Shown piece after piece: positions 2,513-56,339 of a stretch of 64,000 bases of DNA (positions are counted from its first letter, which is position 1; each line of letters begins with the position of its first letter). This stretch comes from an uncultured Candidatus Saccharibacteria bacterium. Its GTDB lineage: Bacteria > Patescibacteriota > Minisyncoccia > Phycocordibacterales > UBA12079. The DNA lies in assembly GCA_964608745.1 (NCBI GenBank), contig CAZSPC010000001.1, positions 750-64,749 on the forward strand. Reading direction: 5' to 3'. The translations under genes and the position numbers were made by a program. The notes beneath the pieces are model-generated. The model was given only the letters and a program-made list of their open reading frames with translations, made no database searches and was not told the origin of the DNA.

Positions 2513-2607
2513 GCGTATAGTGTATAGCGTATAGCGTATAGAAAGAAATTTTGGCTTTGCCAAAATTTCTTCCCTACAACCCTAAACGCTACAACCCTAA
2601 ACGCTAT
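2513..2607 (+). repeat. family A structured repeat (gcgtatag tandem arm / aaattttggctttgccaaaattt hairpin / ccctaaacgcta arm) upstream of rplJ
   Basis: arm-hairpin-arm architecture shared with >=17 other copies. Confidence 0.7.
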
Positions 2608-7008: not shown

Positions 7009-7116
7009 CTTAGCGTTTAGGGTTGTAGAGATGAATTTTGCCTTCGGCAAAATTCATCAAAGAAAAATCTTTGATTTTTCTACCTATACCCTAAACGCTG
7101 AACGCTAAACCCTATA
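7009..7116 (+). repeat. family A structured repeat upstream of rpsC
   Basis: agcgtttagggttgtag / gatgaattttgccttcggcaaaattcatc / agaaaaatctttgatttttct / ctacctataccctaaacgctgaacgctaaaccctat. Confidence 0.75.
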
Positions 7117-7120
7117 TATT

Positions 7121-7777
7121 ATGACTCACGTAGCACACCCATACGCACAAAGAATAAAAATATTAAGAGATTGGAAGTCTCGTTGGTTTAGTATGGGTCA
7201 GCAATACAAAGATTTTTTGAAAGCTGATATTTTGATTAGAGAATATTTGGAAAACAGACTGCGGGATATGTACGTTAGCTCGGTAGATGTTGAAAGAGAT
7301 GGCGATAAAATGAAGATTATTATCAAAACATCACGAGCCGGAATGATTATTGGTAGAAGTGGAGATGGAATTCAAAAGTTGAAAAATGAGGTATTAAAAA
7401 TTATCCAAAAAAACAAACTGGTTAAACCAGAGGAATTGAATATAGATGTGGAAGAGGTGAGATACCCTGAAACAGATGCTGGAATTGTTGGTTCAATGGT
7501 TGTTGAAGGGCTTGAAAAACGAATGCCTTTCAGAAGAGTTTTGAAAATGACCGCTGACAAAGTTATGGCAAATAAAGAAATTAAGGGTGTGAGAATTGTT
7601 GTTTCTGGAAGGCTTGGTGGGGCAGAAATGGCTAGAAAAGAACAAGTAAAACAAGGCCGAGTACCTTTACAGACTTTGAGAGCTGATATTGATTACGCTA
7701 CGAAAAGAGCGAATCTACCATATGGTGTTATTGGAGTGAAAGTTTGGATTTATAAAGGAGATGTATTTAATAAATAG
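7121..7777 (+). CDS. rpsC: 30S ribosomal protein S3
   Basis: S3 KH/C-terminal domain similarity; operon position. Confidence 0.9.
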   Translation: MTHVAHPYAQRIKILRDWKSRWFSMGQQYKDFLKADILIREYLENRLRDMYVSSVDVERDGDKMKIIIKTSRAGMIIGRSGDGIQKLKNEVLKIIQKNKLVKPEELNIDVEEVRYPETDAGIVGSMVVEGLEKRMPFRRVLKMTADKVMANKEIKGVRIVVSGRLGGAEMARKEQVKQGRVPLQTLRADIDYATKRANLPYGVIGVKVWIYKGDVFNK

Positions 7778-7882
7778 CGTCTAGCGTTTAGGGTTGTAGA
7801 GATGAATTTTGCCTTCGGCAAAATTCATCAAAGAAAAATCTTTGATTTTTCTACCTATACCCTAAACGCTGAACGCTATACT
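7775..7882 (+). repeat. family A structured repeat upstream of rplP
   Basis: near-identical to 7009-7116. Confidence 0.75.
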
Positions 7883-7892
7883 CTAAAATATT

Positions 7893-8330
7893 ATGTTATT
7901 GTTTCCCAAAAAAGCAAAATATCGAAAATGGCAGACTGGACGAAAACACCCCGAGAAAAGAGGTGTGGCTACTCGTGGTGTAAAAGTTGCTTTTGGATCT
8001 TATGGATTAAAAGCTTTAACAGCAGCGAGGGTGAAAGCAAATCAAATCGAGGCTGCTCGTGTTGCAGCTAACAGGAAAATTGGTAAGTTTGGAAAGATGT
8101 GGATTAGAATTTTCCCAGATAGACCTGTAACAAAGAAGGCTGCCGAGGTTGGTATGGGTAAGGGTAAGGGTGACCCGTATGCTTATTGTGTCGAAGTAAA
8201 ACCAGGAAGGATTTTAATTGAAGTTGACGGTGTAGATGAAGCAATAGCAAGAGAAGCATTGAGAAAAGCGGGAACAAAATTTCCTTTGAAAACGAAGGTT
8301 GTTAGCCGTGAAGATTCCGAAAATATTTAA
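7893..8330 (+). CDS. rplP: 50S ribosomal protein L16
   Basis: MLLFPKKAKYRKWQTGR... L16 N-terminus; operon position. Confidence 0.9.
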   Translation: MLLFPKKAKYRKWQTGRKHPEKRGVATRGVKVAFGSYGLKALTAARVKANQIEAARVAANRKIGKFGKMWIRIFPDRPVTKKAAEVGMGKGKGDPYAYCVEVKPGRILIEVDGVDEAIAREALRKAGTKFPLKTKVVSREDSENI

Positions 8331-8332
8331 AT

Positions 8333-8455
8333 TTTCCCAAAACTAGATGATATTCGCTTTTGTTTGCACAAGAATCTCAGTCGCTGTACTTAGTACATAC
8401 ACCTTCCTCGATTCTTGCACAAACAAAAGCGAATATCATCTAGTTTTGAAAAAAT
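8333..8455 (+). repeat. family B long inverted repeat (3' element) after rplP
   Basis: aaaactagatgatattcgcttttgtttgcacaagaatc ... gattcttgcacaaacaaaagcgaatatcatctagtttt. Confidence 0.75.
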
Positions 8456-8516
8456 TTATTTCATTAAGTTGAAAATATAGAAAAAATAAGTATAGTTATT
8501 GAAATAAAAAAAATGA

Positions 8517-9242: not shown

Positions 9243-9355
9243 AAGCGTTTAGCGTTTAGGGTTGTAGGAATGAATTTTGCCTTCGGTAAAATTCATCAAA
9301 GAAAAATCTTTGATTTTTCTACCTATACCCTAAACGCTGAACGCTATACCCTAAG
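9243..9355 (+). repeat. family A structured repeat upstream of rplN
   Basis: same architecture as 7009-7116. Confidence 0.75.
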
Positions 9356-9733: not shown

Positions 9734-9833
9734 AGCGTTTAGCGTTATAGCATTTAGCGTTGTAGGGAAAATTTTGGCTTTAGCCAAAATTTAAAAAAAT
9801 CTATAACCCTAAACGCTAAACCCTACAACCCTA
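9734..9833 (+). repeat. family A structured repeat upstream of rplX (covarying hairpin aattttggctttagccaaaattt)
   Basis: arms agcgtttagcgttatagcatttagcgttgtag / ctataaccctaaacgctaaaccctacaaccctac. Confidence 0.7.
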
Positions 9834-9840
9834 CAAAAAT

Positions 9841-10149
9841 ATGAAAATCAAAAAAGAAGACAAAGTAATAGTAATTGCCGGAAAGGATAAAGGAAAAACT
9901 GGAAAAGTTTTGAAGGCTTTTCCTGCTGAAAACAAAGTTATTGTTGAAGGTGTGAATATTAAGAAAAAACACCAAAAAGCAACTAGAAGTGGTCAGAAAG
10001 GACAAATAATCGATAAGACTTATCCAATTGATGTTTCAAATGTTATGTTAGCCGATCAAAAGAGTGGAAAACCAACGAGAATAGGAAAGAAATTGGTAGG
10101 TGATAAATTTGTTCGTGTAGCAAAGAAAAGTGGAACAGTTATTAAATAG
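9841..10149 (+). CDS. rplX: 50S ribosomal protein L24
   Basis: KOW motif IVIAGKDKGKTGKV; operon position. Confidence 0.9.
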   Translation: MKIKKEDKVIVIAGKDKGKTGKVLKAFPAENKVIVEGVNIKKKHQKATRSGQKGQIIDKTYPIDVSNVMLADQKSGKPTRIGKKLVGDKFVRVAKKSGTVIK

Positions 10150-10245
10150 CTTATAGCTTCTAGCCGATAGCTTATAGTGAAAAATTTGCCTTTGGCAAAT
10201 TTTTCAAAAGAAAGCTATCAGCTATGGGCTATAATCTATAAGCTT
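10148..10245 (+). repeat. family A variant repeat (agcttatagc arms) upstream of rplE
   Basis: cttatagcttctagccgatagcttatag / gaaaaatttgcctttggcaaattttt / gctatcagctatgggctataatctataagct. Confidence 0.7.
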
Positions 10246-12584: not shown

Positions 12585-12693
12585 GCTAATAGCTTATAGC
12601 CGATAGCTTATAGCCGATAGCTTATAGTGAATTTGCCAAAGGCAAATTTTTCAAAAGAAAGCTATCAGCTATGGGCTATAAGCTACAAGCTTG
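12585..12693 (+). repeat. family A variant repeat (agcttatagccgat tandem arms) upstream of rpsH
   Basis: arms tandemly repeated 14-mer; central hairpin gaatttgccaaaggcaaattt. Confidence 0.7.
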
Positions 12694-13165: not shown

Positions 13166-13255
13166 AGCGTTTAGCGTTTAGCGTTGTAGGGAATAAATTT
13201 TAACTTTAGCCAAAATTTAAAAAAATCTATAACCCTAAGCGCTACAACCCTATAA
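13166..13255 (+). repeat. family A structured repeat upstream of rplF
   Basis: agcgtttagcgtttagcgttgtag ... ctataaccctaagcgctacaaccctat. Confidence 0.7.
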
Positions 13256-13267
13256 TCCTAATAAAAT

Positions 13268-13801
13268 ATGAGTAGAATAGCAAAACAACCAATAGAAATA
13301 CCCGAAAAGACAGAAGTTAATATTACTGATGGTGTTTTGATCGTGAAAGGACCCTTGGGAGAATTAAAAAGAGATTTGAGGTCTGAAATTGAAGTAAAAA
13401 TCGAGGATAATAAAGTGGTGGTAAGTGCAAAAGAAAAAACCAACTTTACTAAAGCAATGCTTGGAACAACAGCATCACACATCAGGAATATGATTGGGGG
13501 GGTAAATAAACCATATGAGAAAAAGTTGGTTGTGGAGGGGGTTGGTTTTAAGTCAGCTGTGCAAGGAAAGGATTTGAATATGAGTCTTGGATTTTCTCAC
13601 GATGTTATTATGTCAATTCCGGAAGATTTAACAGTGACAGCAGAAAAAAATGTTATAACAGTATCAGGGATTGATAAAGAGCAAGTAGGAAGATTTACGG
13701 CAGATATTAGAGCAAAGAAAAAACCAGAACCATATAAGGGCAAGGGCATTAGATATGAAGATGAAGTGATTCGTCGAAAACAAGGCAAAAAAACCGTTTA
13801 A
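13268..13801 (+). CDS. rplF: 50S ribosomal protein L6
   Basis: L6 sequence; operon position. Confidence 0.9.
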   Translation: MSRIAKQPIEIPEKTEVNITDGVLIVKGPLGELKRDLRSEIEVKIEDNKVVVSAKEKTNFTKAMLGTTASHIRNMIGGVNKPYEKKLVVEGVGFKSAVQGKDLNMSLGFSHDVIMSIPEDLTVTAEKNVITVSGIDKEQVGRFTADIRAKKKPEPYKGKGIRYEDEVIRRKQGKKTV

Positions 13802-13925
13802 ATTCCCAAAATTGGCACATTTCGCTTTTGTTTTGGCAAGAATTTCAGTCTCGCAGTATTAGTTTATACAGCTTCTTCAATTCTTGCCAAAACAAAAGCG
13901 AACTGCACTCAATTTTGAAAATTTA
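13802..13925 (+). repeat. family B long inverted repeat after rplF
   Basis: cccaaaattggcacatttcgcttttgttttggcaagaatt ... aattcttgccaaaacaaaagcgaactgcactcaattttg. Confidence 0.75.
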
Positions 13926-13945
13926 AATAATCTAAGAAATATTTA

Positions 13946-14983: not shown

Positions 14984-14987
14984 GGTT

Positions 14988-15039
14988 TAAGTAGTAAGTA
15001 ATAAGAAATGAATTTTTGCCTTTGGCAAAAATTCATTCA
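14988..15039 (+). repeat. truncated family A element (taagtagtaagtaataag arm + gaaatgaatttttgcctttggcaaaaattcattc hairpin)
   Basis: arm type matches copies at 55891 and 43200; right arm replaced by family E motif. Confidence 0.55.
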
Positions 15040-15075
15040 AAATTTACTAAAAACTATAAACTAAAAACTGACGAT

Positions 15076-16980: not shown

Positions 16981-17664
16981 ATGTCAAGAAAAAAAGTAAA
17001 ATTTAGTGTCGGATGTTTCTACCATGTTTATAACAGAGGTGTTGATAAAAGAGAGATTTTTTCTGATAAACAAGACACACTTAGGTTTATAGAGAGCCTA
17101 GATGTGTTTAATACAATAGAGCCCATTGGTAGTATTTTTGCAGAAAAGAAAAGGGGTAGGGGTCGGACCCCTACCCCACCTACCCCAAAAAAACAAAAAG
17201 GAAAGCTAGTTAATATTATCGCTTATTGTCTCAACCTAAATCACTACCATTTTGTTTTAGAAGAAATTGTTGAGGGTGGTATAAGCGAGTTTATGAAAAG
17301 GTTAGGGGGTGGTTATACGGGATATTACAACATTAAATATAAGAGAAATGGAGTTTTATTTCAGGGAAAATTTAAGACGGTGCATATAAAAAAAGACGGT
17401 CAGTTGGAATATACGGTTGACTATGTCAATTTAAACAATTTGGTTCATAAAAAATTTGACGGTACCAAAAAACATTTTTTAGACGACATTCCAGCTAGAT
17501 CTAGTTGGAATGAATATATCAATGAAAATATAAAGGGTATTTGTGGCAAAGACATTATTCTTGATGTTTACAAAAAAGCGTATAGAAGTAGAAATACATA
17601 TGAATCTAGTGCCAAAGAAACATTAAAAATGGTAAGAGAGATGAGATACGGGGATGAAAAATAA
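16981..17664 (+). CDS. REP-associated tyrosine transposase (RAYT, IS200/Y1-transposase-like) copy 1
   Basis: YHVYNRG, HUH motif NHYHFVLEE, G-YTGYYN, LFQGKFK, YVNLNNL (RAYT YIHLNPV-like); flanked by palindromes at 16941-16962 and 17665-17690. Confidence 0.75.
   Translation: MSRKKVKFSVGCFYHVYNRGVDKREIFSDKQDTLRFIESLDVFNTIEPIGSIFAEKKRGRGRTPTPPTPKKQKGKLVNIIAYCLNLNHYHFVLEEIVEGGISEFMKRLGGGYTGYYNIKYKRNGVLFQGKFKTVHIKKDGQLEYTVDYVNLNNLVHKKFDGTKKHFLDDIPARSSWNEYINENIKGICGKDIILDVYKKAYRSRNTYESSAKETLKMVREMRYGDEK
17152..17176 (+). repeat. REP-like palindrome (ggtaggggtcggacccctacc) embedded in-frame inside RAYT-1
   Basis: encodes linker RGRGRTPTPPTP; same palindrome repeated at 16941 and 17668. Confidence 0.7.
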
Positions 17665-17801: not shown

Positions 17802-20800
17802 ATGGAAAAACATAAGCTGAAAATTTATATTTTACTAACAGTTGCTTTTTTGATGGTGGCTGTCTTTTTGCCGTTGAATATTACGAAAGCAAAAGAAATT
17901 TTGGTGGGCGAAAAAATATCCCAAGAGATTGAAAAAGTTATCGATTTACTTGAAGTTTTGGCTAAAAATACCTTTAGTTTTTTTGTAGAAAATAGGGCTG
18001 ATGGAATCAAAAAAATAGTTAATTCAACTAATAATCTTTTCATTTATGTTTATGTTGCTGATCCAAAATTCGAAGAAAAAGACAAAAATAAGGTAGAGTT
18101 TGCACAAAAAAAAGAAATCGAAGAACCAAAGCTAGAAATTCAAACTCAAAAAATTGTTTTTGTTGGACTTGTGGATGATTTTCGTCAAACTATTTTAGAA
18201 TTTATAAACCTAACGAAAATCTTTTCTCAAAATGTTTTAGAAGGAGCAAGTGAAGTTCGAAAAATAACAATTGATTTAACAACTAAATCTTTAAAAGATA
18301 CCCAATGGCTAATTCAAGAAAACAATTCTTTGGTTAATGGTATTCTAGGTAAAGGAGTTAAACAAGCTCAAAAAATTGTAATTTTTGCTAGTGAATTTAC
18401 AAATATTTACTATATTCAACTTGGAAAAATAACAACTAGAATACCTGATGTAGCAACTACCATAGTCACAAGTGCTTTTGATGATGTTCATATGGTTGTT
18501 AAAATCAATAACGATTTTGTAAACAACACTCTTGGCCGAGGAGTAAAAAAAATAAAAGTTACCGCAATTTGGACAACCAGCTTATTATCTTCAATGGATG
18601 ATAATTTTAAAAACCTGGCTCTAAGAATTTACAAAAACACAACAAAACTAACATCAGATACTTTTACTCAGATTAAAAAAACAACCCGCCAAGTAAAATT
18701 CCTTTTCTCTGAGTCTTTTGTGGGTTCGGGGATTGTTTTGGGTGAGAAAAAAGATTATCTTTTGGCTTCGGCTTATCGACAATCAAATCGAGGAAAAACA
18801 GTTCTTGAAAATACAGCTGTAAAAACATATAGATTTTTTAACAACTTGCTTATCTTTAATTTTGGCAATAATGAAGTGATTGTTGTTGAAGAAGAAAAAC
18901 ACAACGAACTAAAAGAGGAACCACAAAAAGAAATACAAAATGTCAATCCGCCTAAGGTAGAAGAGCAGGTAAAAGTAGTTTATCAACCAACTAATACAAT
19001 TGTTGAAAGAGTAATTCAGGCAACTAGTGGTGTAACACCAGCAGATCTACAAAAACTAAAAAACGAATTATTGCAAGAGATTTACAGAATGGCAGATAAA
19101 TCAACACCAACTATATATCCAATATCTAACTACGCAGCTATTGCTCACACAAACAAAATTGATCAACTAAATTCTGTTACTATCAATTCATCAGCAATCA
19201 GTGGCGGGACTATTAGCGGAGCAACAATAACTAACACACCAATTTCCGGTTCAACTGGATCATTCACAATACTTTCGGTGTCTGATAGCGCAACAATTGG
19301 GGGACAATTTACAGCAAATAGTGCCTCAACAACCCAATTAACTGTTTCTGACCGATCTTGGTTTACTGGTTTAGCTTCTTTTGGTAATGCAACAACTTCA
19401 AACTTAACAGTAACCGGAATACTTTATGACTCAGACGGAGAAGCTGGTATATCGGGTCAAGTTCTTTCTACCACAGCAACTGGAACGAGTTGGACAACTA
19501 ATTCTTCAACCCAAGATTCAGACGGAGATACAATGATTCAAGCAGAAGAATCAGCTGACGAAGATAAAATTAGATTTGATACTGCCGGAACAGAAAGGAT
19601 GGTTATTGATGAAGATGGAAAAATTGGAATAGCAACAACTTCACCTTTATCAAAACTAACAATCTTCGGAGATGTGTTCCTAGACGGAGCAAATCGTTAT
19701 CTGAATTTTGGTACAACTACTGCTACTTCATCTGCTGGTTATGGTATTAGAGATAATTTAGGAACAATACAATACAAAAACCTAGGAGGTTCTTGGGCTG
19801 ATGTTGGAAGTGGAGGAGGGTCAGGAACAGTAACTTCTGTTGATATGACAGTCCCAACCGGATTATCTGTTTCAGGAAATCCAATTACTACATCTGGCAC
19901 ACTAGCTCTAACCTATTCTGCTGGTTATGAAGGGCTAAAAACAGCTTCATCAACTAACTGGAATACTTTCTACGATACTCCTTCAAACAGAATCACGGCT
20001 GGAACAGGATTGAGTTGGTCAACTAACACACTTAATGCTGAAGTACAATCATCAGATTTAAATAACTACCTTTCACTAGTAAATTGGTACGCAACAACAA
20101 CTCACGAAAATATTTCTTCTCTCCCTTCGCTTTCAATCACAGAATCACAAATTTCAGATCTTGATCATTTCGATGGAGGAGGTTTTTACACATATTTCAA
20201 TGCAACTAATACGGATGCTCTTAGCGAAGGTTCTTCAAACCTTTATTACACAGACGCAAGGGCTCGATCTGCCATCGATTCTTCTGCTACAGGATTAACT
20301 TATACACCAGGGACAGGAATCTTTTCTCTAACCCCTGGTTACAACATTCCATTAACAGCCAGCACAACTAACTGGAATAATTTTTATGATACTCCTTCGG
20401 GTCAAATTACAGCAGGAACAAATATTTCTTGGTCTTCAAATACTTTAAATGTTGATGATGCGTTTTTAATTAATAATGGAGATGATGCAACTACGGGACA
20501 GCTTACCGCAGCAAACTTTGTAGCTTCGTCCGGTACAGCAACTTCCACATTTGCCGGTGGCTTGAATGTAGGAAGCGGAGGTTTGATTTATGATTATTCG
20601 AGTGGAAAAGTAGGTATTGGAACAGATTCTCCGGTTACTAATTTAGAAATAAGTAGTAACGAAACAACAGAATTGAGAATTGGACATGGAAATAATTGGA
20701 ATGGTGCCTTGTCGTTTTATGAGGGAGGAGTACCTTCTTGGTCTTTTTATAACGTTGGAAATGGCGACTTGTTTCAATTTAATTATGCTGGTACAGGAAT

Positions 20801-23501
20801 GGCTACATTTGAACCAGGTGGTGATGTTGGAATAGGAACAACCTCACCTTTTGCTAAATTATCAGTAGCGGGTAATGGTTATTTTGACGGAAATGTGACA
20901 GCTTCAATTTTTACAGCTACAAGTACAAGTGCCACCTCCACTTTTCCATATTTTTCAGCCTCCCAATCTAATCTTGGTACGGTAGTAGGAGGAATCTGGA
21001 ACGGCTCCTCGATTGCTGATGCTTATGTTGACAATGATATTACCGCTTCAAATTATCTTTCGTTGACCAACTGGTTTGCAACAACAACTCACTCACTAAT
21101 TTCAAGCTTGCCTAATCTGTCTGTTACAGAATCACAAATTTCAGACCTAGATCATTACACAAACAATGATTGGGATATTAGAATGACATCAACAACAACC
21201 CTTCCCTCAATAACAACATTAGCTAACTTAGCTACGGTTGGAACAATTGGAAGTGGAGTTTGGAACGGAACTGCTATTGGTGATACTTATCTAACCAAAA
21301 CAGGCAATTGGACAGGAACATTTGATGGGCAAGAAGGTTCTTATTACCTAGATGCTGATAATCTAAACGACTTTGATAATCCTTTCTATACCTACTTCAA
21401 CGCAACTAATACGGATGCTTTGAGCGAAGGATCAAGTAATTTTTATGCGACTCAAAGTCGTTGGGATAGTTTTTGGAACGCATCAACTACATTAAGTAGC
21501 GTTACTTCTGTTCCTAATCTATCTATCACAGAATCTCAGATATCTGACTTACAAAATTACTTGGCTTTGGCTAATTGGTATGCAACAACAACTGATGGAC
21601 TAACACAAGGTTCAGCAAATCTATACAATCAAACTCACACAGGAGAAGTAACAGGATCTACCGCTTTAACAATTGCTAACAATATTATTGATGAAGCTAA
21701 TCTAAAACTAGACACTTCACCAACTGACAACTACATTCTAATTGCTTCTTCTACAGCAAGTGGAGGAATGGATTGGGTAGCAACCTCTTCTCCTCTTTTG
21801 AATTTATCCTCGGGTGGCGGAGGTTCTTCAGCTCTAACTCACACAAATATTTTTGTTGGAAATTCTTCAAATATAGCAACAGCAACTTCATCTTTGGTTA
21901 TTTTGGACAATGGGAATATAGGAATAGGAACAACTTCACCTCTAACCTCACTATCCCTCGAAGGCACAGCCGGAACACCTATAATGAACATTGCTAATTC
22001 AACTGGTGCCAGTGCTTTGTATGTTGATGAGGGCGGAGATATTGGCATCGGGATGACCGCTCCAACCTCCAAATTTCATGTAGTAGATACATTAAGCGCA
22101 GCTACTGGTGATGAAGTAGTATATTCTCTTAATTATACAACCAATAAAGCAACTAGTGGAAATGATACGGGGTTACAGATAAACATGACGGATACAGCGA
22201 GTCCTGGAACGAGCTATTTAATTGATGCTCGTGTTGGGGGTACAAGTAAGTTCTGGGTTGATTCTAGTGGTAACGCTTTAATTGCTAATGGAATGAGGCT
22301 TGGTTCTGCAAATGCTTCGATTAGCCCAGCAGGAAGTAAGCTACTACTTAATTCAACCGAAAAGATTGAAATGAGATTATGGGGTGATATTTCATCTGGT
22401 AATGCTTTTGAGTTTAAACCTGGTATGGCAGGTTTGCAACTGACCGGGTCAAGCGGAGTTCAATCATTTTTAAGTATAATACCAGAAATCAATCAGAGTG
22501 GAACAGCTGGATATAATGGTATATTTCTTAATGTTACAGAAACAGGAATTGGTAGTGGTCCTAATAATTTAATTGATTTGCAGGTAGATAGTTCAAGTAA
22601 ATTTTTGGTTGATAATACCGGTAACGTCGGAATCGGGACAACTTCACCATATTCAAAATTATCTGTTTGGGGAGACGCTCTTGGAAATATTTTTGAAGCA
22701 ATTACAAATTCTTCAACAACAGCTATGGTAATTAATGCAATTGGTGATATTGGCATTGGAGTAACCGATCCTGATAAGAAATTAGAAGTATTCGAGACAG
22801 TTGCTGATGCACAAGTTAAAATTTCTTATGATGCAACTCGTTATGCGAACTTGCAAGTTGATTCTGTTGGAGATTTAATTATTGATCCTCAAGGAAATGA
22901 TTTATTCTTAAATGACGATAACCTGTTTTCTTGTACAGGAGGTTCGTGTCCTGCTGGCAATCCAACCGGAACAGGTAATATAGTGGTTGAAAATAAAGTA
23001 GGTATTGGAACCACAACTCCTGCCTACAAATTATCAATTGAAACCCAAGATTCATCAACTAATTTATTACAAATAGCATCTAGTACTAATCAAAATATAT
23101 TTACAATCAACTCCGATGGAGATATTGCTATTGGAACATCTAGTCCGTTTGCGAGATTTTCTATTGGATCAGGGGGGGCTATTGTTGTTGAAGAAAATAC
23201 TCTTATTGATGGAGCAACTATTACAGTTGATTGGCGAGATGGTAATCAGCAAGATGTTGAGTTAGGTGGAAACAGGACAATTAATTTCTCAAATTACACT
23301 CCTGGACAAACATTGCGTCTGCTTGTTTGTCAAGATTCGACTGGTTCAAGGACAGTTACTTGGGATTCAAACATAGATTGGAATGATGCCACAGCTCCTA
23401 CTCTTACAACCACAGCAGATAAATGTGATGTGATTGCGTGTATTGCGACAGAGGCAAAGGGTGTTTTGGATGTCTTTTGTACAGCGACGTTGAATTTTTA
23501 A
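17802..23501 (+). CDS. giant secreted/cell-surface protein (1899 aa), tail-fibre-like repeat protein
   Basis: N-terminal TM/signal; Thr/Ser/Gly-rich; many (K/D)IGIGTTSP(x)xKLSV repeats and 3 copies of SLSITESQISDLDH / FNATNTDALSEGSSN(L/F)Y units. Confidence 0.6.
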   Translation: MEKHKLKIYILLTVAFLMVAVFLPLNITKAKEILVGEKISQEIEKVIDLLEVLAKNTFSFFVENRADGIKKIVNSTNNLFIYVYVADPKFEEKDKNKVEFAQKKEIEEPKLEIQTQKIVFVGLVDDFRQTILEFINLTKIFSQNVLEGASEVRKITIDLTTKSLKDTQWLIQENNSLVNGILGKGVKQAQKIVIFASEFTNIYYIQLGKITTRIPDVATTIVTSAFDDVHMVVKINNDFVNNTLGRGVKKIKVTAIWTTSLLSSMDDNFKNLALRIYKNTTKLTSDTFTQIKKTTRQVKFLFSESFVGSGIVLGEKKDYLLASAYRQSNRGKTVLENTAVKTYRFFNNLLIFNFGNNEVIVVEEEKHNELKEEPQKEIQNVNPPKVEEQVKVVYQPTNTIVERVIQATSGVTPADLQKLKNELLQEIYRMADKSTPTIYPISNYAAIAHTNKIDQLNSVTINSSAISGGTISGATITNTPISGSTGSFTILSVSDSATIGGQFTANSASTTQLTVSDRSWFTGLASFGNATTSNLTVTGILYDSDGEAGISGQVLSTTATGTSWTTNSSTQDSDGDTMIQAEESADEDKIRFDTAGTERMVIDEDGKIGIATTSPLSKLTIFGDVFLDGANRYLNFGTTTATSSAGYGIRDNLGTIQYKNLGGSWADVGSGGGSGTVTSVDMTVPTGLSVSGNPITTSGTLALTYSAGYEGLKTASSTNWNTFYDTPSNRITAGTGLSWSTNTLNAEVQSSDLNNYLSLVNWYATTTHENISSLPSLSITESQISDLDHFDGGGFYTYFNATNTDALSEGSSNLYYTDARARSAIDSSATGLTYTPGTGIFSLTPGYNIPLTASTTNWNNFYDTPSGQITAGTNISWSSNTLNVDDAFLINNGDDATTGQLTAANFVASSGTATSTFAGGLNVGSGGLIYDYSSGKVGIGTDSPVTNLEISSNETTELRIGHGNNWNGALSFYEGGVPSWSFYNVGNGDLFQFNYAGTGMATFEPGGDVGIGTTSPFAKLSVAGNGYFDGNVTASIFTATSTSATSTFPYFSASQSNLGTVVGGIWNGSSIADAYVDNDITASNYLSLTNWFATTTHSLISSLPNLSVTESQISDLDHYTNNDWDIRMTSTTTLPSITTLANLATVGTIGSGVWNGTAIGDTYLTKTGNWTGTFDGQEGSYYLDADNLNDFDNPFYTYFNATNTDALSEGSSNFYATQSRWDSFWNASTTLSSVTSVPNLSITESQISDLQNYLALANWYATTTDGLTQGSANLYNQTHTGEVTGSTALTIANNIIDEANLKLDTSPTDNYILIASSTASGGMDWVATSSPLLNLSSGGGGSSALTHTNIFVGNSSNIATATSSLVILDNGNIGIGTTSPLTSLSLEGTAGTPIMNIANSTGASALYVDEGGDIGIGMTAPTSKFHVVDTLSAATGDEVVYSLNYTTNKATSGNDTGLQINMTDTASPGTSYLIDARVGGTSKFWVDSSGNALIANGMRLGSANASISPAGSKLLLNSTEKIEMRLWGDISSGNAFEFKPGMAGLQLTGSSGVQSFLSIIPEINQSGTAGYNGIFLNVTETGIGSGPNNLIDLQVDSSSKFLVDNTGNVGIGTTSPYSKLSVWGDALGNIFEAITNSSTTAMVINAIGDIGIGVTDPDKKLEVFETVADAQVKISYDATRYANLQVDSVGDLIIDPQGNDLFLNDDNLFSCTGGSCPAGNPTGTGNIVVENKVGIGTTTPAYKLSIETQDSSTNLLQIASSTNQNIFTINSDGDIAIGTSSPFARFSIGSGGAIVVEENTLIDGATITVDWRDGNQQDVELGGNRTINFSNYTPGQTLRLLVCQDSTGSRTVTWDSNIDWNDATAPTLTTTADKCDVIACIATEAKGVLDVFCTATLNF

Positions 23502-27916: not shown

Positions 27917-28594
27917 ATGATTATAATGAGAATTTATTTTGAAAAAGAAAGACACTACCATATTTATAATAGAGGTACAGATAAACGGGAGATATTTACA
28001 GATAAATACGATGTATATAGATTTATAGAAAGTATAGAAGAGTTTAATTGTGTTGGAGTTAATAATGATATTTTTCATTCTGAAAGGTCGAGAAAACGTC
28101 AAATAAAAAGAGGTGGGTGTCCGACACCCACCAAATATGAAAAAAGTGGCCAAAAACTTGTCAATATTATTGCATATTGTTTGAACCCGAATCACTATCA
28201 TTTTATTTTGGAAGAGTTGGTTGAAGGAGGAATAAGTGAGTTTATGAAAAGATTAAACGGAGGTTATTCCAGATATTACAATATAAAATATGGTAGATCT
28301 GGATCATTGTTTCAAGGAAAATTTAAGGCAAAATATATAAAAGAATCACTTCTTTATGTTTCTGCTTATGTTAATTTGAATAATCTTGTTCATAAAAAAA
28401 TTGACGGGACTAATTCGTATTTTATGGATGATATTGTTAATAGGTCGAGTTGGAGTGAGTATATTCAAGAAAATCCAAAATTTGAAATTTGTGAAAAAGA
28501 CTTTTTACTTAGTAGATATAACACTAAGTTAGAATATAAAAAAGATGCAGAGGAAATATTGAATACAATAAAAGAAAAACGTTATGAAGATTAA
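27917..28594 (+). CDS. REP-associated tyrosine transposase (RAYT) copy 2
   Basis: about 60% identical to copy 1; HYHIYNRG, NHYHFILEE, LFQGKFK, YVNLNNL; internal REP at 28112-28132 encodes RGGCPTPT; REP at 28594-28627 downstream. Confidence 0.75.
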   Translation: MIIMRIYFEKERHYHIYNRGTDKREIFTDKYDVYRFIESIEEFNCVGVNNDIFHSERSRKRQIKRGGCPTPTKYEKSGQKLVNIIAYCLNPNHYHFILEELVEGGISEFMKRLNGGYSRYYNIKYGRSGSLFQGKFKAKYIKESLLYVSAYVNLNNLVHKKIDGTNSYFMDDIVNRSSWSEYIQENPKFEICEKDFLLSRYNTKLEYKKDAEEILNTIKEKRYED

Positions 28595-31821: not shown

Positions 31822-32067
31822 GATTTTTTTAAAATCTGCAAGCATTGTTTGTTTGCAGATTTTTTATTTTGATAATATAATACTAATAAGGCTCTCTGGA
31901 AATTATATTTCTAGCTAACGCATTTTAAGGGAATTTCTGTAAGGTTGCATCTTGGTGTAGTCTTCAAAATTTTACCCAACCTAGATTTTTTCTAGGAATA
32001 AATGTCCCAGATAGCCTAATACAGAAAACCATCCGTCCTAGATTGGCGGATGGTTTTTGTATTTTAA

Positions 32068-32208
32068 TTATTCCAAAATCGGCGAACTTTGGTTTTGTTT
32101 TTTAAAATTTTCTAAGGTTACCCGGTAACCTAGCCTATCGGCCTGGTTACCGGGTAACCGAAAATTTTAAAAAACAAAACCGAATTTCATCCAATTTTGG
32201 AATAATTG
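32068..32208 (+). repeat. family B-like long inverted repeat
   Basis: ccaaaatcggcgaactttggttttgtttttt...ggttacccggtaacc...aaaaaacaaaaccgaatttcatccaattttgg. Confidence 0.55.
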
Positions 32209-33267: not shown

Positions 33268-33385
33268 TAGGGTTATAGGGCTTAGCGTTTAGGGTTATAG
33301 GTAAAAAACCTTTGATTTTTTGATGAATTTTGCCTTTGGCAAAATTTGTCTCCCTACACCCCTAAACGCTAATCGCTAAACGCTT
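33268..33385 (-). repeat. family A structured repeat upstream of rplT (inverted, matching gene orientation)
   Basis: order of inner hairpins is reversed on + strand, i.e. element is oriented with the minus-strand gene. Confidence 0.7.
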
Positions 33386-38426: not shown

Positions 38427-38483
38427 AGTTCTATTTAAGTAGCTGGTATGTTATCATAAGATTGTTTACTTCGCAACAATCTG

Positions 38484-38889
38484 AGCGTTATAGCGTTTAG
38501 GGTTGTAGAAAATTTATGTATTCAAAATCTTTTAAACATTTACAAGTCTGGCAGAGATCAATAGAGCTGGTAAGAGAAGTTTATAAAATTACAGAAAGTT
38601 TTCCTAAGAACGAAACATACGGATTGGTGAGTCAGATGAGGAGATCGGCTGTTTCGATACCGTCAAATATTGCCGAGGGTTATAAAAGGAGAGGGCTCGG
38701 AGATTACATTCGTTTTTTAGGTGTATCTGAAGGCTCCTCTGCTGAGTTAGAAACCCAAATTATAATCTCTAGAGATTTATACAAGGAAATTAATTTTGCA
38801 AAAACCGAAGCTCTACTCGAAGAAGTTCAAAAAATGTTATTTGTTATGATTAAAAACCTAAACGCTAAACGCTAAACACTACAACCCTA
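38484..38889 (+). repeat. family A repeat whose loop is occupied by a four-helix-bundle gene (split arms 38484-38507 and 38856-38889)
   Basis: left arm gcgttatagcgtttagggttgtag; right arm aacctaaacgctaaacgctaaacactacaaccctat encodes the protein C-terminus KNLNAKR. Confidence 0.7.
38516..38875 (+). CDS. four-helix-bundle protein (23S rRNA intervening-sequence protein family)
   Basis: VWQRSIELVREVYKITESFPKNETYGLVSQMRRSAVSIPSNIAEGY...SSAELETQ matches the IVS-protein family. Confidence 0.8.
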   Translation: MYSKSFKHLQVWQRSIELVREVYKITESFPKNETYGLVSQMRRSAVSIPSNIAEGYKRRGLGDYIRFLGVSEGSSAELETQIIISRDLYKEINFAKTEALLEEVQKMLFVMIKNLNAKR

Positions 38890-39545: not shown

Positions 39546-39625
39546 AAGCGTTTAGCGATTAGCGTTTAGGGTTGTAGAGAACAAATTTTTACTATAACCC
39601 TAAACGCTAAGCCCTATACCCTAAT
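39546..39625 (+). repeat. family A repeat (no central mini-hairpin) upstream of rpsL
   Basis: agcgtttagcgattagcgtttagggttgtag ... ctataaccctaaacgctaagccctataccct. Confidence 0.65.
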
Positions 39626-40039: not shown

Positions 40040-40163
40040 GAATTTTCCCAGAATTAGCGACCTTCGTTTCTTTTTCCTCAAATTTTTGTTCACCGTATTG
40101 CTATACGGCTCACGAAAATTTTTCGAAAAAATAAACGAATCTCATCTAATTCTGAAAAAATTC
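40040..40163 (+). repeat. family B (subtype b) long inverted repeat after rpsL
   Basis: cccagaattagcgaccttcgtttctttttcctcaaattttt ... gaaaatttttcgaaaaaataaacgaatctcatctaattctg. Confidence 0.7.
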
Positions 40164-40226
40164 ATATTTTTGAAATTATTTATAATTTACTAAAAACTAA
40201 AAACTATTTAACTAAAAACTAACGCT

Positions 40227-40697
40227 ATGCGTCGTCCAATCAAAGATAAAAGAAATATCCAGCCAGACCGAGTGTATAATTCGTTGGTTGTTGAGCGATT
40301 TATAAACTATCTTATGCTTGATGGTAAAAAATCAGTTGCCCGAAAGGTGGTGTATGATGCAATGGATATCATCAAGGAAAAAGCAAAAGTAAAAGATCCG
40401 ATGGAAGTATTCAATGGAGCTATCAAAAATGCAGGACCAATTATGGAAGTAAAATCTCGAAGAATTGGAGGGGCAAATTATCAGGTGCCTATTCAAGTTA
40501 AGGAGGATCGAAAACTATCACTTGCGATGCGATGGATTTTAGAAGCAGCGAGAGCAAAAAAAGGAACATCAATGAGTGAAAGATTAGCAGAAGAATTAAT
40601 TCAAGCTAATAACAAAGAAGGGGAGGTGATTAAGAAAAGAGAAAATGTTCACAAGATGGCGGAAGCGAATAAAGCCTTTGCCCACTTCGCTTGGTAA
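40227..40697 (+). CDS. rpsG: 30S ribosomal protein S7
   Basis: S7 sequence; follows rpsL. Confidence 0.9.
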   Translation: MRRPIKDKRNIQPDRVYNSLVVERFINYLMLDGKKSVARKVVYDAMDIIKEKAKVKDPMEVFNGAIKNAGPIMEVKSRRIGGANYQVPIQVKEDRKLSLAMRWILEAARAKKGTSMSERLAEELIQANNKEGEVIKKRENVHKMAEANKAFAHFAW

Positions 40698-40699
40698 AA

Positions 40700-40833
40700 T
40701 TATTCCAAAACTAGCGATATTCGTTCCTTTTTTCTCAAATTTCCGTTCACCTTATTCTAACCTTATTCTAAGATAAGGCTCACGAAAATTTTTCGAAAAA
40801 ATAAACGAATTTCATCTAGTTTTGAAATAATTT
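40700..40833 (+). repeat. family B (subtype b) long inverted repeat after rpsG
   Basis: ccaaaactagcgatattcgttcc ... ggctcacgaaaatttttcgaaaaaataaacgaatttcatctagttttg. Confidence 0.7.
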
Positions 40834-40881
40834 AAAAATTTTCAAAAAAATTAAAAAATTAAAAATTCTAAATTAAAAACT

Positions 40882-43090: not shown

Positions 43091-43296
43091 GATTTTTATT
43101 TTCAATTACTCATCTTTAAATTTTAGTAACCTAGTTACCGGGTAACCCAAGAAAAACGGTTTTTTATTTTGTCTTATTTTCTTTTTTTTGATTATCTAGT
43201 ATTAAGTAGTAAGGTGTAAGTAATAAGTTTTCTTTTTGATTTTTCAATGGTCCGTCAGCTGACGGACCATTGAATTTTTTGTGTTAAAATAAACTT

Positions 43297-46552: not shown

Positions 46553-46652
46553 AAGCGTTTAGCGTCCAGCGTTTAGCGTTGTAGTGAACAAATTTTGCCT
46601 TTGGCAAAATTTGTTAAAACCTATAACCCTAAACGCTAAACGCTAAACCCTA
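46553..46652 (+). repeat. family A structured repeat upstream of tuf
   Basis: agcgtttagcgtccagcgtttagcgttgtag / gaacaaattttgcctttggcaaaatttgtt / ctataaccctaaacgctaaacgctaaaccctat. Confidence 0.75.
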
Positions 46653-47856: not shown

Positions 47857-47861
47857 TAAAT

Positions 47862-47981
47862 TATCCCAAAACTAGCGACCTTCGTTTCTTTTTTCTCAAA
47901 ATTCCGTTCACCGTATTGTTATACGACTCACGAAATTTTTTCAAAAAAAGAAACGAATCTCATCTAGTTTTGAAATAATTT
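47862..47981 (+). repeat. family B (subtype b) long inverted repeat after tuf
   Basis: near-identical to 40040-40163. Confidence 0.7.
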
Positions 47982-48179
47982 AAACAATTTATAGAGGTTA
48001 AAATTATTAAAAATTTTAACCTTACTAAGTGTCGCTTGTTCTCAGGCGACACCATAGTGAGGTTAAAGTTAGAGATTTTGATGTTTATGTCTGTTGAGTA
48101 TTCAACTAAAACACAAAATTAAAAACTTGTTTTTGTTTCCTCTTAAAAACAAAGACAAATATTACAATTAAATTATTTG

Positions 48180-48276
48180 AGCGTTTGGCGTATAGCATTT
48201 AGCGTTGTAGTGAACAAATTTTGCCAAAGGTAAAATTTGTTTAAACCTATAACCCTAAACGCTAAACCCTATACCC
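48180..48276 (+). repeat. family A structured repeat upstream of rpsJ
   Basis: gcgtttggcgtatagcatttagcgttgtag / gaacaaattttgccaaaggtaaaatttgtt / ctataaccctaaacgctaaaccctataccct. Confidence 0.75.
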
Positions 48277-48283
48277 TAATTTT

Positions 48284-48664: not shown

Positions 48665-48667
48665 TTA

Positions 48668-48790
48668 AATTTTTCCAGAATTGGCGAATTTCGCTTTTGT
48701 TTCGGCAAGAATTTCAGTCGTAGTATTTGGTTATACAACTTCTTCAATTCTCACCAAAACAAAAGCGAACTTCATCCAATTCTGAAAAAA
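48668..48790 (+). repeat. family B (subtype a) long inverted repeat after rpsJ
   Basis: ccagaattggcgaatttcgcttttgtttcggcaagaatt ... aattctcaccaaaacaaaagcgaacttcatccaattctg. Confidence 0.7.
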
Positions 48791-48990
48791 TTGAAAATTG
48801 AATTTAATTTCGAAAAAATAAAAAATTCAGAAGCAAGGCTTCTGAATTTTTTGTTTTTTCACTATCTTTTCTATCTTTCGTCTTTGCGATCCGTCAGCCG
48901 ACGGATTCATAATCCGTCAGCCGACGGAGAAGCAATCCAGTCGCAGGTATCGCCAGGGCGAACCCAAAATTCTCTTACTCCTTATTCCTA

Positions 48991-52627: not shown

Positions 52628-52750
52628 GGGTTTAGCGTCTAGTGTTTAGGGTTGTAGGAATGAATTTTGCCGAAGGCAAAATTCGTCAATGAAAAAATTG
52701 CTTTAGCAATTTTTTATCTATAACCCTAAACGCTAAACCCTACAACCCTA
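52628..52750 (+). repeat. family A structured repeat (two inner hairpins) upstream of rplW
   Basis: gtttagcgtctagtgtttagggttgtag / gaatgaattttgccgaaggcaaaattcgtc / gaaaaaattgctttagcaattttttatc / ctataaccctaaacgctaaaccctacaaccct. Confidence 0.75.
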
Positions 52751-53065: not shown

Positions 53066-53160
53066 GGAGGAATAAAGAATAAGGACTTAGGAATGTAGGA
53101 ATGAATTTTGCCTTCGGCAAAATTCATTCAAGACTTATTCCTCATTCCTTATTTCTAGGT
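53066..53160 (+). repeat. family A variant repeat (aggaataagga arms) upstream of rplB
   Basis: ggaggaataaagaataaggacttaggaatgtag / gaatgaattttgccttcggcaaaattcattc / cttattcctcattccttatttctaggtcct. Confidence 0.7.
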
Positions 53161-54072: not shown

Positions 54073-54221
54073 TAAAAAAGCATCGCCTAGGCGATGCTTT
54101 TTTATTATTTTCGTTTTCCGACTTTTCTAGTAATAAGTTGTAAGTAATAAGGATTAAGTAAAAAGGCTTTGTTGGATGATTTAAATAACTCAACCCGTTG
54201 AGTTATTTATCTTTATACCCT

Positions 54222-55890: not shown

Positions 55891-56307
55891 TCATTTCTAG
55901 TAGTAAGGTATAAGTAGTAAGTAATAAGTAAATTTTTATGGAGAAATTTGAAGATATTATTGCTTGGCAAAAATCACAAAAATTAGCTGTTTTTGTGTAT
56001 AAAAAATTTAGCAATAATAAAGATTTTAGTTTTAGAGATCAGATTCAAAGAGCATCAGTGAGTATTAGTAATAATATTGCCGAAGGTTTTGCTCGAAAAG
56101 GAAATAAAGAATTCAAACAGTTTTTGTATATAGCAAAAGGTTCATGCAGTGAAGTTCGGTCAATGTTATATCTTGCGTTAGAGTTGGATTATATTTCAAA
56201 ATCAGAATTTGACGAGTTTTATAGATTAGCAATTGAAATTTCAAAAATATTGTCAGGTCTTATTAAAAGTTTAAAATAGTCTTACTTACTACTTAATCCT
56301 TACTACT
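55891..56307 (+). repeat. family A-type repeat (taagtagtaag arms) whose loop is occupied by a second four-helix-bundle gene
   Basis: left arm tagtagtaaggtataagtagtaagtaataagta (55891-55923); right arm cttacttactacttaatccttactac (56281-56307). Confidence 0.65.
55938..56279 (+). CDS. four-helix-bundle protein (23S rRNA intervening-sequence protein family), copy 2
   Basis: IAWQKSQKLAVFVYKK...FRDQIQRASVSISNNIAEGFARKGNKEF...GSCSEV. Confidence 0.8.
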   Translation: MEKFEDIIAWQKSQKLAVFVYKKFSNNKDFSFRDQIQRASVSISNNIAEGFARKGNKEFKQFLYIAKGSCSEVRSMLYLALELDYISKSEFDEFYRLAIEISKILSGLIKSLK

Positions 56308-56339
56308 TTGCACTTGCGCGTAGCGCATGCGAAGCGCCT

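Follow-up and report, generated by a model that had tools for sequence, protein, structure and literature searches.

How do two small protein-coding genes come to lie in the spacers of a bacterial genome, each enclosed by a pair of complementary repeats? We addressed this question in a 64-kb window (positions 1–64000, the whole stretch of DNA analysed; 34% GC) from an uncultured Candidatus Saccharibacteria bacterium, in which the genes are small and mostly on the plus strand and are separated by structured spacers of ~100–150 nucleotides (nt). Two of these spacers hold a gene for a four-helix-bundle (4HB) protein of the PF05635/TIGR02436 family. One lies in front of a gene for an M50 peptidase, which is followed by rpsL and rpsG, and the other lies between a trypsin-like protease gene and fpg; each is bracketed by an upstream (left) and a downstream (right) arm built of tandem heptamers, and we refer to gene and arms together as cassettes 1 and 2. 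A first-pass annotation had likened this layout to the intervening sequences (IVSs) of 23S rRNA that carry an open reading frame (ORF), and the likeness holds, in that a 4HB ORF occupies the loop of a stem formed by terminal inverted repeats, as it does in Coxiella. The same layout proved to be far from peculiar to this genome: inverted heptamer arrays accompany the 4HB family in every bacterial phylum that we sampled.

Both 4HB genes are complete, as had been claimed. The PF05635 profile aligned over nearly its full length (positions 1–104 of 106 for gene 1 and 1–106 of 106 for gene 2) and scored 120.7 bits (E = 4e-35) and 125 bits (E = 2e-36), respectively, against a cut-off of 33.8, and TIGR02436 scored 118 bits against a cut-off of 24. 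By these profile scores the two proteins, which are 32% identical to each other, are ordinary members of the family. Structures have been solved for PF05635, but we know of no function for it outside diversity-generating retroelements (DGRs). The family is very large: each search scored 8000 candidate clusters, almost all of which were relatives. Its members in our sample are basic (median isoelectric point [pI] 9.3), and the ORF of a typical cassette encodes ~115–125 aa. The helix-2 motif RxxxSxxxNxxE(G) described for PF05635 (PMC3936711) is present, and its residues R43, S47, N51 and E54 are invariant in our 4HB alignment. The family profile also matches the PDB entries 2GSC (XCC0516; E = 7e-30) and 2RLD (E = 4e-9), each of which contains five chains; 2GSC is a toroidal homopentamer according to Lin 2006, as cited in PMC4990558. 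By homology to these two structures, the window proteins would be expected to form homopentameric four-helix-bundle assemblies. Neither protein matched any of the PADLOC defence-system models (0 families), and we rejected a role as a defence system on that basis.

To place the two cassettes in a family context, we collected 80 loci from a genome-collection scan with a 28-sequence alignment (homologues 48–68% identical; mostly metagenome-assembled genomes of Patescibacteria, with a few labelled Omnitrophota, Nitrospirae or Planctomycetia), which with the window pair gave 82 4HB genes, and we used 525 other ORFs from the same loci as controls for flank scores. The flanks of the 4HB genes scored far higher for inverted repeats than did those of the controls (median 13 versus 7; Mann-Whitney p = 3e-35), and 76% of the 82 genes exceeded the 95th percentile of the controls. 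On folding, 84% of cassettes formed at least 12 arm-to-arm pairs (median 28.5), compared with 25% of size-matched control ORFs (median 6). The flanks also had a marked period of seven: self-identity at lag 7 was 0.49 upstream and 0.44 downstream, compared with 0.31 in controls and ~0.26 at every other lag. By eye, nearly every 4HB gene is preceded by units like TAGCTTT TAGCTGA TAGCTTA TAG and followed by complementary units like CTAAAAG CTATAAG CTAACAG.

In Patescibacteria the upstream unit takes the form (T/C)AG-NNNN and the downstream unit its complement, in arrays of ~4–5 heptamers. The dinucleotide after (T/C)AG varies by locus (CT 25, CG 8, GG 8, GT 7, TT 5, and others) and, as judged by eye, matches between the two arms of one cassette; 4HB proteins that share an arm core are more alike than those that do not (57% versus 51% identity, or 0.572 versus 0.509; permutation p < 0.001). 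Arms most often contain five (T/C)AG units, and higher numbers are much rarer: four, five and six units were found in 17, 23 and 0 left arms and in 10, 31 and 5 right arms. Between the final left-arm unit and the 4HB ATG the median distance is 7 nt.

The same architecture recurs, with unrelated heptamers, in other phyla. In Xanthomonas, Lysobacter and Dokdonella an orthologue of XCC0516 sits between accB and accC (a spacer of 10 nt in E. coli), with (GGGAATN)4–5 upstream and (NATTCCC)4–5 downstream, the right array abutting the accC ATG. In Bacteroides a 2RLD-type gene lies between araD and araA, flanked by (AATTGAC)n and (AATTGTC)n, and a second 4HB gene with the same arms lies in the spacer between an aminotransferase gene and a DAHP-synthase gene. 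On plasmids of Nostoc, Anabaena, Pseudanabaena, Stanieria, Picosynechococcus, Riemerella and Gemmatirosa, inverted arrays with a period of 7 or 8 nt bracket the 4HB genes, several of which are inside cas operons (cas6|cas4 and cmr2|cmr3); an earlier report counted 18 PF05635 genes within cas loci (PMC3936711). In the accessible literature, PF05635 genes are not tied to flanking heptamer arrays save in the Coxiella IVS, and the hallmark and the intra-operon habit therefore appear undescribed so far, with the reservation that some older papers were outside this coverage and may hold a prior description.

Two observations at these loci deserve mention in their own right. The annotated start codons of the Lysobacter and Dokdonella 4HB genes (L178:3501 and L180:3501) fall inside the upstream GGGAAT array, and gene callers thus probably misplace starts and stops in and around heptamer arrays. 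Some plasmid arrays are much longer than five units: more than 35 units of GGTGACA/GGGAACA adjoin the 4HB gene in a cas6–cas4 operon of plasmid pANA02 of Anabaena sp. 90 (L194:870–1200), and 14 units of AAAAGCT adjoin the one in a cas6–cas4 operon of a Pseudanabaena plasmid (L189:1000–1200). Both long arrays resemble the short tandemly repeated repetitive (STRR) sequences of cyanobacteria.

Within the window, cassette 1 belongs to the dispersed repeat family that the first-pass annotation had named family A. Its left-arm 17-mer AGCGTTTAGGGTTGTAG is an exact family-A arm, which matches 21 sites in the window at up to two mismatches and none in shuffled sequence, and its right arm is a member of the family-A right-arm repeats (84% identity to the reference). 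Because the arms are tandem heptamers, they can pair in several registers (17 nt at 88%, 14 nt at 93% or 11 nt at 100%), of which the one consistent with the family joins 38491–38507 to 38851–38867. The arm blocks originally quoted for this cassette are indeed complementary, but they could not all pair at once, as the pairings would cross and only one nested register can form. A minimum-free-energy (MFE) fold of the whole cassette has 17 arm-to-arm pairs enclosing the ORF. The right arm encodes the C-terminal KNLNAKR of the protein, as had been noticed, together with the gene 1 stop codon, and its final base is the A of the ATG of the M50 peptidase gene. Cassette 2 pairs more extensively, through 26 nt at 92% complementarity (55899–55924 with 56282–56307) and with 39 arm-to-arm pairs in its MFE fold. 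Its arms share the family-A architecture of heptamer arrays in a distinct flavour, AAGTAGT/ACTACTT, which recurs without an ORF at 14989, 43197–43227 and 54135–54165. The view that both genes lie between arms of the family-A type therefore stands for the complementary arms of both, whereas of the two only cassette 1 has the family-A sequence.

Comparison with related loci indicated how the cassettes came to their present positions. In a second sample, of 80 related loci from a metagenome scan with the M50 peptidase encoded downstream of cassette 1 (48–80% identical), none carried a 4HB gene (0/80), and most retained the order MBL/ComEC-like gene, L28 (minus strand), M50, S12 and S7. The L28|M50 spacer, which is 462 nt in the window, was 35–253 nt in the relatives examined; locus L089 has a plain spacer of 69 nt, and in L088 the cassette 1 site is occupied by a heptamer hairpin that has no ORF and differs in flavour. 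Conversely, the closest homologues of 4HB protein 1 (71–74% identical) are encoded after recJ, after parB and beside a TPR gene. The first-pass annotation had regarded 4HB genes outside repeats in relatives as evidence that would speak against it; the positions are unrelated, yet heptamer arms flank all of these genes. Because the 4HB gene is absent from the M50 relatives and its closest homologues have unrelated neighbourhoods, each cassette is, on this comparative evidence, an insertion into a host transcription unit. Comparison of the filled site with L089 and L088 revealed no evident target-site duplication, in spacers that have strongly diverged. A separate peculiarity of the relatives is the presence of GC-rich inserts of 300–470 nt between the M50 gene and rpsL (L093:3105–3552, L096:3105–3578, L102:2995–3308 and L104:3108–3518), which fold very strongly (dG –125 to –174 kcal/mol) and whose counterpart in the window is a 78-nt family-A element.

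The transcription units that receive such cassettes usually do not encode rRNA. A blastn search with E. coli 16S and 23S rRNA, with a positive control, found rRNA within 3 kb of none of the 80 4HB loci (0/80), and a survey of rRNA insertions in the candidate phyla radiation (CPR) only rarely found a 4HB ORF (PMC11270868). Non-rRNA sites are therefore the rule for 4HB genes rather than a derived state, and the proposal that the elements spread from rRNA into mRNA leaders is not borne out by either observation.

Several features tie the cassettes to the transcription of their hosts. An extended –10-like motif, TGTTATCAT, lies upstream of the insertion point of cassette 1 and is kept in place in the cassette-less relatives L088, L089, L093, L096, L100 and L119; it is a candidate promoter of M50-rpsL-rpsG, and its position would place cassette 1 in the 5′ untranslated region (UTR) of that unit. 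Scans for sigma-70 promoters and terminators around both cassettes gave counts equal to those in shuffled sequence. Across the sample, 4HB genes share the orientation of the upstream neighbour in 75 of 81 cases (93%) and of the downstream neighbour in 69 of 80 (86%), against a baseline of 73% for adjacent genes of these loci (p = 1e-5 and 4e-3, respectively). The median gaps to these neighbours are 38 and 33 nt and are occupied by the arms, which leaves no room for a promoter of the cassette's own. The arrays also supply codons to the genes next to them. The upstream gene ends in TAG in 40 of 58 cases, compared with 89 of 402 other genes (odds ratio 7.8, p = 3e-12), with this TAG in phase with the array in 27 cases; since TAG recurs at 7-nt intervals, translation in any of the three frames meets a stop within 21 nt. 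Downstream, the start codon is fused to the last CTA as CTATG in 15 of 53 cases, compared with 39 of 407. The donation of stop codons and the abutment of the array on the next start are compatible with translational pass-through coupling.

The cassettes are accompanied by many hairpins that have the arms without the gene. A strict search for a TAG array followed by a CTA array identified hairpins without an ORF, 14 of them in the 64-kb window, 19 in 468 kb of 4HB loci (at 10 of the 80 loci) and 2 in 337 kb of M50 loci. Dispersed ORF-less hairpins with the same arms, as originally described, are thus a reality in the window genome, and those at other 4HB loci apparently have the flavour of the resident 4HB arms (by eye, where compared). 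Three family-A copies in different spacers are 87–91% identical over 124 nt, a similarity that points to recent proliferation or gene conversion as the probable source. Family-A elements have a polarity, with GTTGTAG in the left arm and CTATAAC in the right, which follows the downstream gene; the sole reversed copy precedes a minus-strand gene. Elements with ATAGCTT and GGAATAAGG arms occur in the window only without an ORF. A search of the six-frame translation with the 4HB profile found no degraded 4HB remnant in the other elements of the window, so the idea that most copies had lost their ORF finds no direct support. Given the ORF-less element of L088, the hairpins may derive from cassettes or may themselves be the primary repeat. 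The loops of family-A elements contain a conserved mini-hairpin, GAATTTTGCC-TTCG-GGCAAAATTC, whose loop is flipped (GAAG) in one copy (52658–52684 versus 53103–53129 and the other family-A loops), which suggests that the mini-hairpin is a separate, invertible or insertable module.

Table 1. Positions in the window of the 4HB genes, their arms, the candidate promoter motif and the ORF-less hairpins.
Feature	Position	Strand	Remarks
4HB gene 1	38516–38875	+	119 aa, complete ORF, PF05635/TIGR02436, pI 9.5
4HB gene 2	55938–56279	+	113 aa, complete ORF, PF05635/TIGR02436, pI 9.3
Cassette 1 left arm	38484–38508	+	AGCGTTATAGCGTTTAGGGTTGTAG; heptamers AGCGTTA TAGCGTT TAGGGTT GTAG
Cassette 1 right arm	38857–38889	+	CCTAAACGCTAAACGCTAAACACTACAACCCTA; heptamers CCTAAAC GCTAAAC GCTAAAC ACTACAA CCCTA
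Cassette 2 left arm	55898–55931	+	TAGTAGT AAGGTAT AAGTAGT AAGTAAT AAGTAA
Cassette 2 right arm	56281–56308	+	CTTACTT ACTACTT AATCCTT ACTACTT
Extended –10-like motif TGTTATCAT	38449–38457	+	upstream of cassette 1 insertion point
ORF-less heptamer-arm hairpin	2518–2606	+	right arm of family-A type
ORF-less family-A element	7011–7114	+	
ORF-less family-A element	7775–7885	+	first TAG of array is stop of upstream gene
ORF-less family-A element	9250–9353	+	
ORF-less family-A element	9740–9833	+	
ORF-less element, ATAGCTT flavour	10147–10238	+	first TAG of array is stop of upstream gene
ORF-less element, ATAGCTT/ATAGCCG flavour	12590–12685	+	
ORF-less family-A element	13172–13260	+	
ORF-less element	14984–15075	+	left arm is exact cassette 2 arm 17-mer AAGTAGTAAGTAATAAG
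ORF-less family-A element	33268–33378	–	reverse polarity, before minus-strand gene
ORF-less family-A element	39553–39623	+	directly upstream of rpsL
ORF-less family-A element	46560–46652	+	
ORF-less family-A element	48193–48278	+	
ORF-less family-A element	52633–52750	+	mini-hairpin loop flipped

What, then, do the arms do? With moderate confidence, we favour a reading in which the cassette is a promoter-less insert in a host operon whose co-transcribed arms pair and are cut by RNase III, which would free the 4HB message; the RNase III step is proposed by analogy with the Coxiella 23S IVS. The cassette would be transcribed together with the host genes, and its arrays would pair in the transcript to form an imperfect stem of 17–40 bp that closes off the 4HB ORF, as in ORF-bearing 23S rRNA IVSs. 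Cleavage of this stem would release the 4HB message and separate the flanking host RNAs from each other, and it is this separation that would make the insertion tolerable. In vitro, RNase III cuts the 28-bp terminal stem of the Coxiella IVS, and the mapped ends fall within that stem; just before the start of its ORF the IVS has GACAGAT heptamers in tandem, in variable copy number (PMC4990558).

A number of observations weigh against this reading. The authors of the Coxiella study concluded that the IVS protein is probably not made in vivo (PMC4990558). Mismatches in the sense-strand stems of our sample show no excess of G·U over A·C (68 versus 98, or 14 versus 25 for isolated mismatches), a comparison made on arms that are skewed in base composition and have many unconstrained positions, and transversion mismatches are common at the variable positions of the heptamers. 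The pairing score of 18.9 compares with 16.4 for shuffled heptamer units, a signal of register-specific pairing that is weak over the whole sample and rarely significant at a single locus; much of the complementarity arises because both arms repeat one core motif, in opposite orientations. Finally, the GGGAAT arm is conserved across three Xanthomonadales genera, which suggests sequence-specific recognition rather than pairing alone. The present evidence does not separate RNA pairing from DNA-level or protein-recognition models, and the missing G·U excess, the transversions, the small effect of shuffling and the conservation of GGGAAT keep one model of each kind in contention.

The DNA-level model, which we consider unlikely, takes the cassette to be a mobile element whose inverted arrays are binding sites of its own 4HB protein, similar to transposon ends or to repetitive extragenic palindromes (REPs). 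Together with host enzymes, the protein would mobilise or maintain both the cassette and the elements without an ORF, much as RAYTs do with REPINs, and the complementarity of the arms would be a by-product. Such an element would account for presence and absence among relatives and for closest homologues that are non-syntenic, for nearly identical family-A copies in different spacers, and for divergent 4HB paralogues that differ in arm flavour and are each matched in flavour by ORF-less elements of the same genome, as well as for the ORF-less hairpins of other genomes that share the flavour of the resident 4HB gene. The uncompensated variable positions of the heptamers, the missing G·U excess and the basic nature of the proteins also fit. 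The correlation of protein similarity with arm core and the arm sequence conserved across Xanthomonadales genera point the same way, but the correlation is confounded by phylogeny, and the Xanthomonadales copy occupies the same fixed locus in every genus, a sign of vertical inheritance and not of activity. Moreover, no nuclease or recombinase chemistry is known for the 4HB family, no transposase is linked to the cassettes, and no target-site duplications were recognised. The protein-recognition model, which strikes us as rather improbable, is an RNA switch: a pentameric 4HB ring would bind single-stranded RNA, namely the five heptamers of one arm, in the way that TRAP does. By competing with arm pairing it would autoregulate 4HB translation and would determine how the RNA is processed or how accessible the start codon is, both for the gene downstream and for genes that follow an ORF-less element. 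The five chains of 2GSC and 2RLD and the toroidal homopentamer of the former match the peak at five units per arm, although a constraint on stem length could equally produce that peak, and the proximity of the last left-arm unit to the 4HB ATG, the abutment of the right arm on the downstream ATG and the polarity of family A with respect to the downstream gene are all as expected of a switch. However, RNA binding has never been shown for family members outside DGRs, and binding of single-stranded RNA alone leaves the complementarity of the other arm unexplained.

Two further explanations fared worse. That the 4HB genes might be remnants or accessory genes of a DGR, encoding its Avd protein, is suggested by the relatedness of Avd to PF05635 (PMC10053308) and by weak matches to bAvd (PF22296) and NF033474, but these matches are far below the cut-offs (17–22 bits versus 40 and 19–20 bits versus 80, respectively) and no reverse transcriptase is found among the neighbouring genes; we regard this origin as very improbable and effectively refuted. 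Chance complementarity between low-complexity, AT-rich spacers around two ordinary small genes might be expected in a repeat-rich genome of such low GC content, but it is refuted by the absence of the 17-mer arm from shuffles, by the lack of signal at control ORFs of the same loci, and by the recurrence of the architecture in Bacteroides and in the GC-rich Xanthomonadales, where the heptamers are unrelated, and we give it practically no weight. A broader and quite tentative proposal, to which we attach a low probability, is that PF05635 genes are the protein-coding "masters" of pan-bacterial tandem-array hairpins with a period of 7–8 nt (family A and, in heterocystous cyanobacteria, part of the STRRs), with a pentamer reading five heptamers. 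The ring would recognise its own arm flavour, either like TRAP or by binding as at transposon ends, and would thereby govern how cassettes and their copies without an ORF pair, are processed or spread, both in operons and in rRNA.

The surroundings of the cassettes contain other repeats and genes of note. The neighbour genes of the two cassettes encode L28, the M50 peptidase, S12, the trypsin-like protease, Fpg and L2. Look-ups of identical proteins gave hits solely on short contigs from the same organism. Scans of the 64 kb found no tRNA gene, no Rfam family at the gathering threshold and no rRNA, in a window that nonetheless includes many ribosomal-protein genes. A second, unrelated family of large hairpins (arms 43–60 nt, loop ~33 nt, core TTCCCAAAAYTRGCGA...TTCGYTTT) occurs at 8328–8458, 13797–13926, 32066–32207, 40040–40201, 40697–40871, 47858–48019 and 48667–48792, and these hairpins start right where a ribosomal-protein or other gene reaches its stop codon. 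A palindrome rich in GC, GGTGGGTGTC(C/G)GACACCCACC, with A/T runs on either side and ~10 copies in the window (10822, 11584, 16930, 17144, 17658, 27873, 28101, 28588, 54210 and 59113), looks like a shared terminator hairpin; it brackets each of two paralogous genes of ~226 aa (16981–17664 and 27917–28594), which are 76% identical over 193 nt. A 1899-aa ORF at 17802–23501 has internal repeats of ~59 nt.

PF05635 genes come with a fixed and recognisable nucleic-acid partner, the inverted arrays of about five heptamers. Their presence as promoter-less inserts in essential or well-studied operons (accB-accC, araD-araA and cas) makes the puzzle of the IVS protein testable in tractable organisms, and the same habit explains how 4HB genes came to be regarded as "associated" with CRISPR-Cas and other systems unrelated to them. 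The cassettes are also a candidate source of the abundant leader hairpins without an ORF in this small Patescibacteria-like genome, and possibly of cyanobacterial STRRs, and they expose a source of annotation error, because the arrays often supply the start or stop codons of neighbouring genes and the C terminus of the 4HB protein.

Of known systems, the ORF-bearing IVSs of rRNA (in Leptospira, Coxiella burnetii and Haemophilus, with the S23p ORF) are closest to the window cassettes. Both kinds of element place an ORF of one protein family inside the loop of a stem that terminal inverted repeats can close (17 and 39 predicted pairs here), tandem heptamers adjoin the start of the ORF, as GACAGAT does in Coxiella, and there is no promoter of its own, the element being transcribed with the host RNA (PMC4990558); such IVSs have long been suspected of being selfish elements (PMC4990558). 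The cassettes differ in their location, a probable mRNA 5′ UTR and an intercistronic spacer instead of rRNA helices 9, 25 or 45, and with protein-coding neighbours and no rRNA in the window they lack the position that defines an rRNA IVS. Their arms consist wholly of heptamer arrays, they have numerous ORF-less siblings in the same genome, and RNase III cleavage, known for the Coxiella IVS, is proposed for them by analogy.

REPINs and RAYTs (PMC3116915) likewise combine a single small gene flanked by inverted repeat copies with dispersed ORF-less hairpin doublets, and distinct repeat flavours accompany distinct gene copies. The gene in the window cassettes, however, encodes a four-helix bundle (PF05635 only) in place of an HUH/Y1 (IS200/IS605-like) transposase, the repeats are tandem heptamer arrays and not palindromes of 20–35 nt, and mobility is conjectural. 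As regards insertion sequences and miniature inverted-repeat transposable elements, no transposase is linked to the cassettes, and the diverged filled and empty spacers that were compared have no evident target-site duplication. Avd, too, acts with nucleic acid, binding both reverse transcriptase and RNA. It has a homologous fold, PF05635 being related to bAvd, and is basic and pentamer-forming (PMC10053308), whereas near the window cassettes there is neither a reverse transcriptase nor a template or variable repeat, and their proteins score below the Avd cut-offs.

A further parallel is TRAP, which binds (G/U)AG triplet repeats in the trp leader. Here as there, a ring-shaped homo-oligomer may be matched with evenly spaced motifs, in our case (U/C)AG every 7 nt, whose number approximates that of the subunits; the fold is unrelated and the cassettes have a complementary second array, so the likeness is an analogy only. 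Lastly, the STRRs of cyanobacteria are, to our knowledge, repeat arrays without an assigned function or a described link to a gene family. Like the arms, they are intergenic tandem heptamers, and the arrays on plasmids of Nostoc, Anabaena and Pseudanabaena flank 4HB genes in inverted orientation. From this handful of loci we propose a new link between STRRs and 4HB genes.

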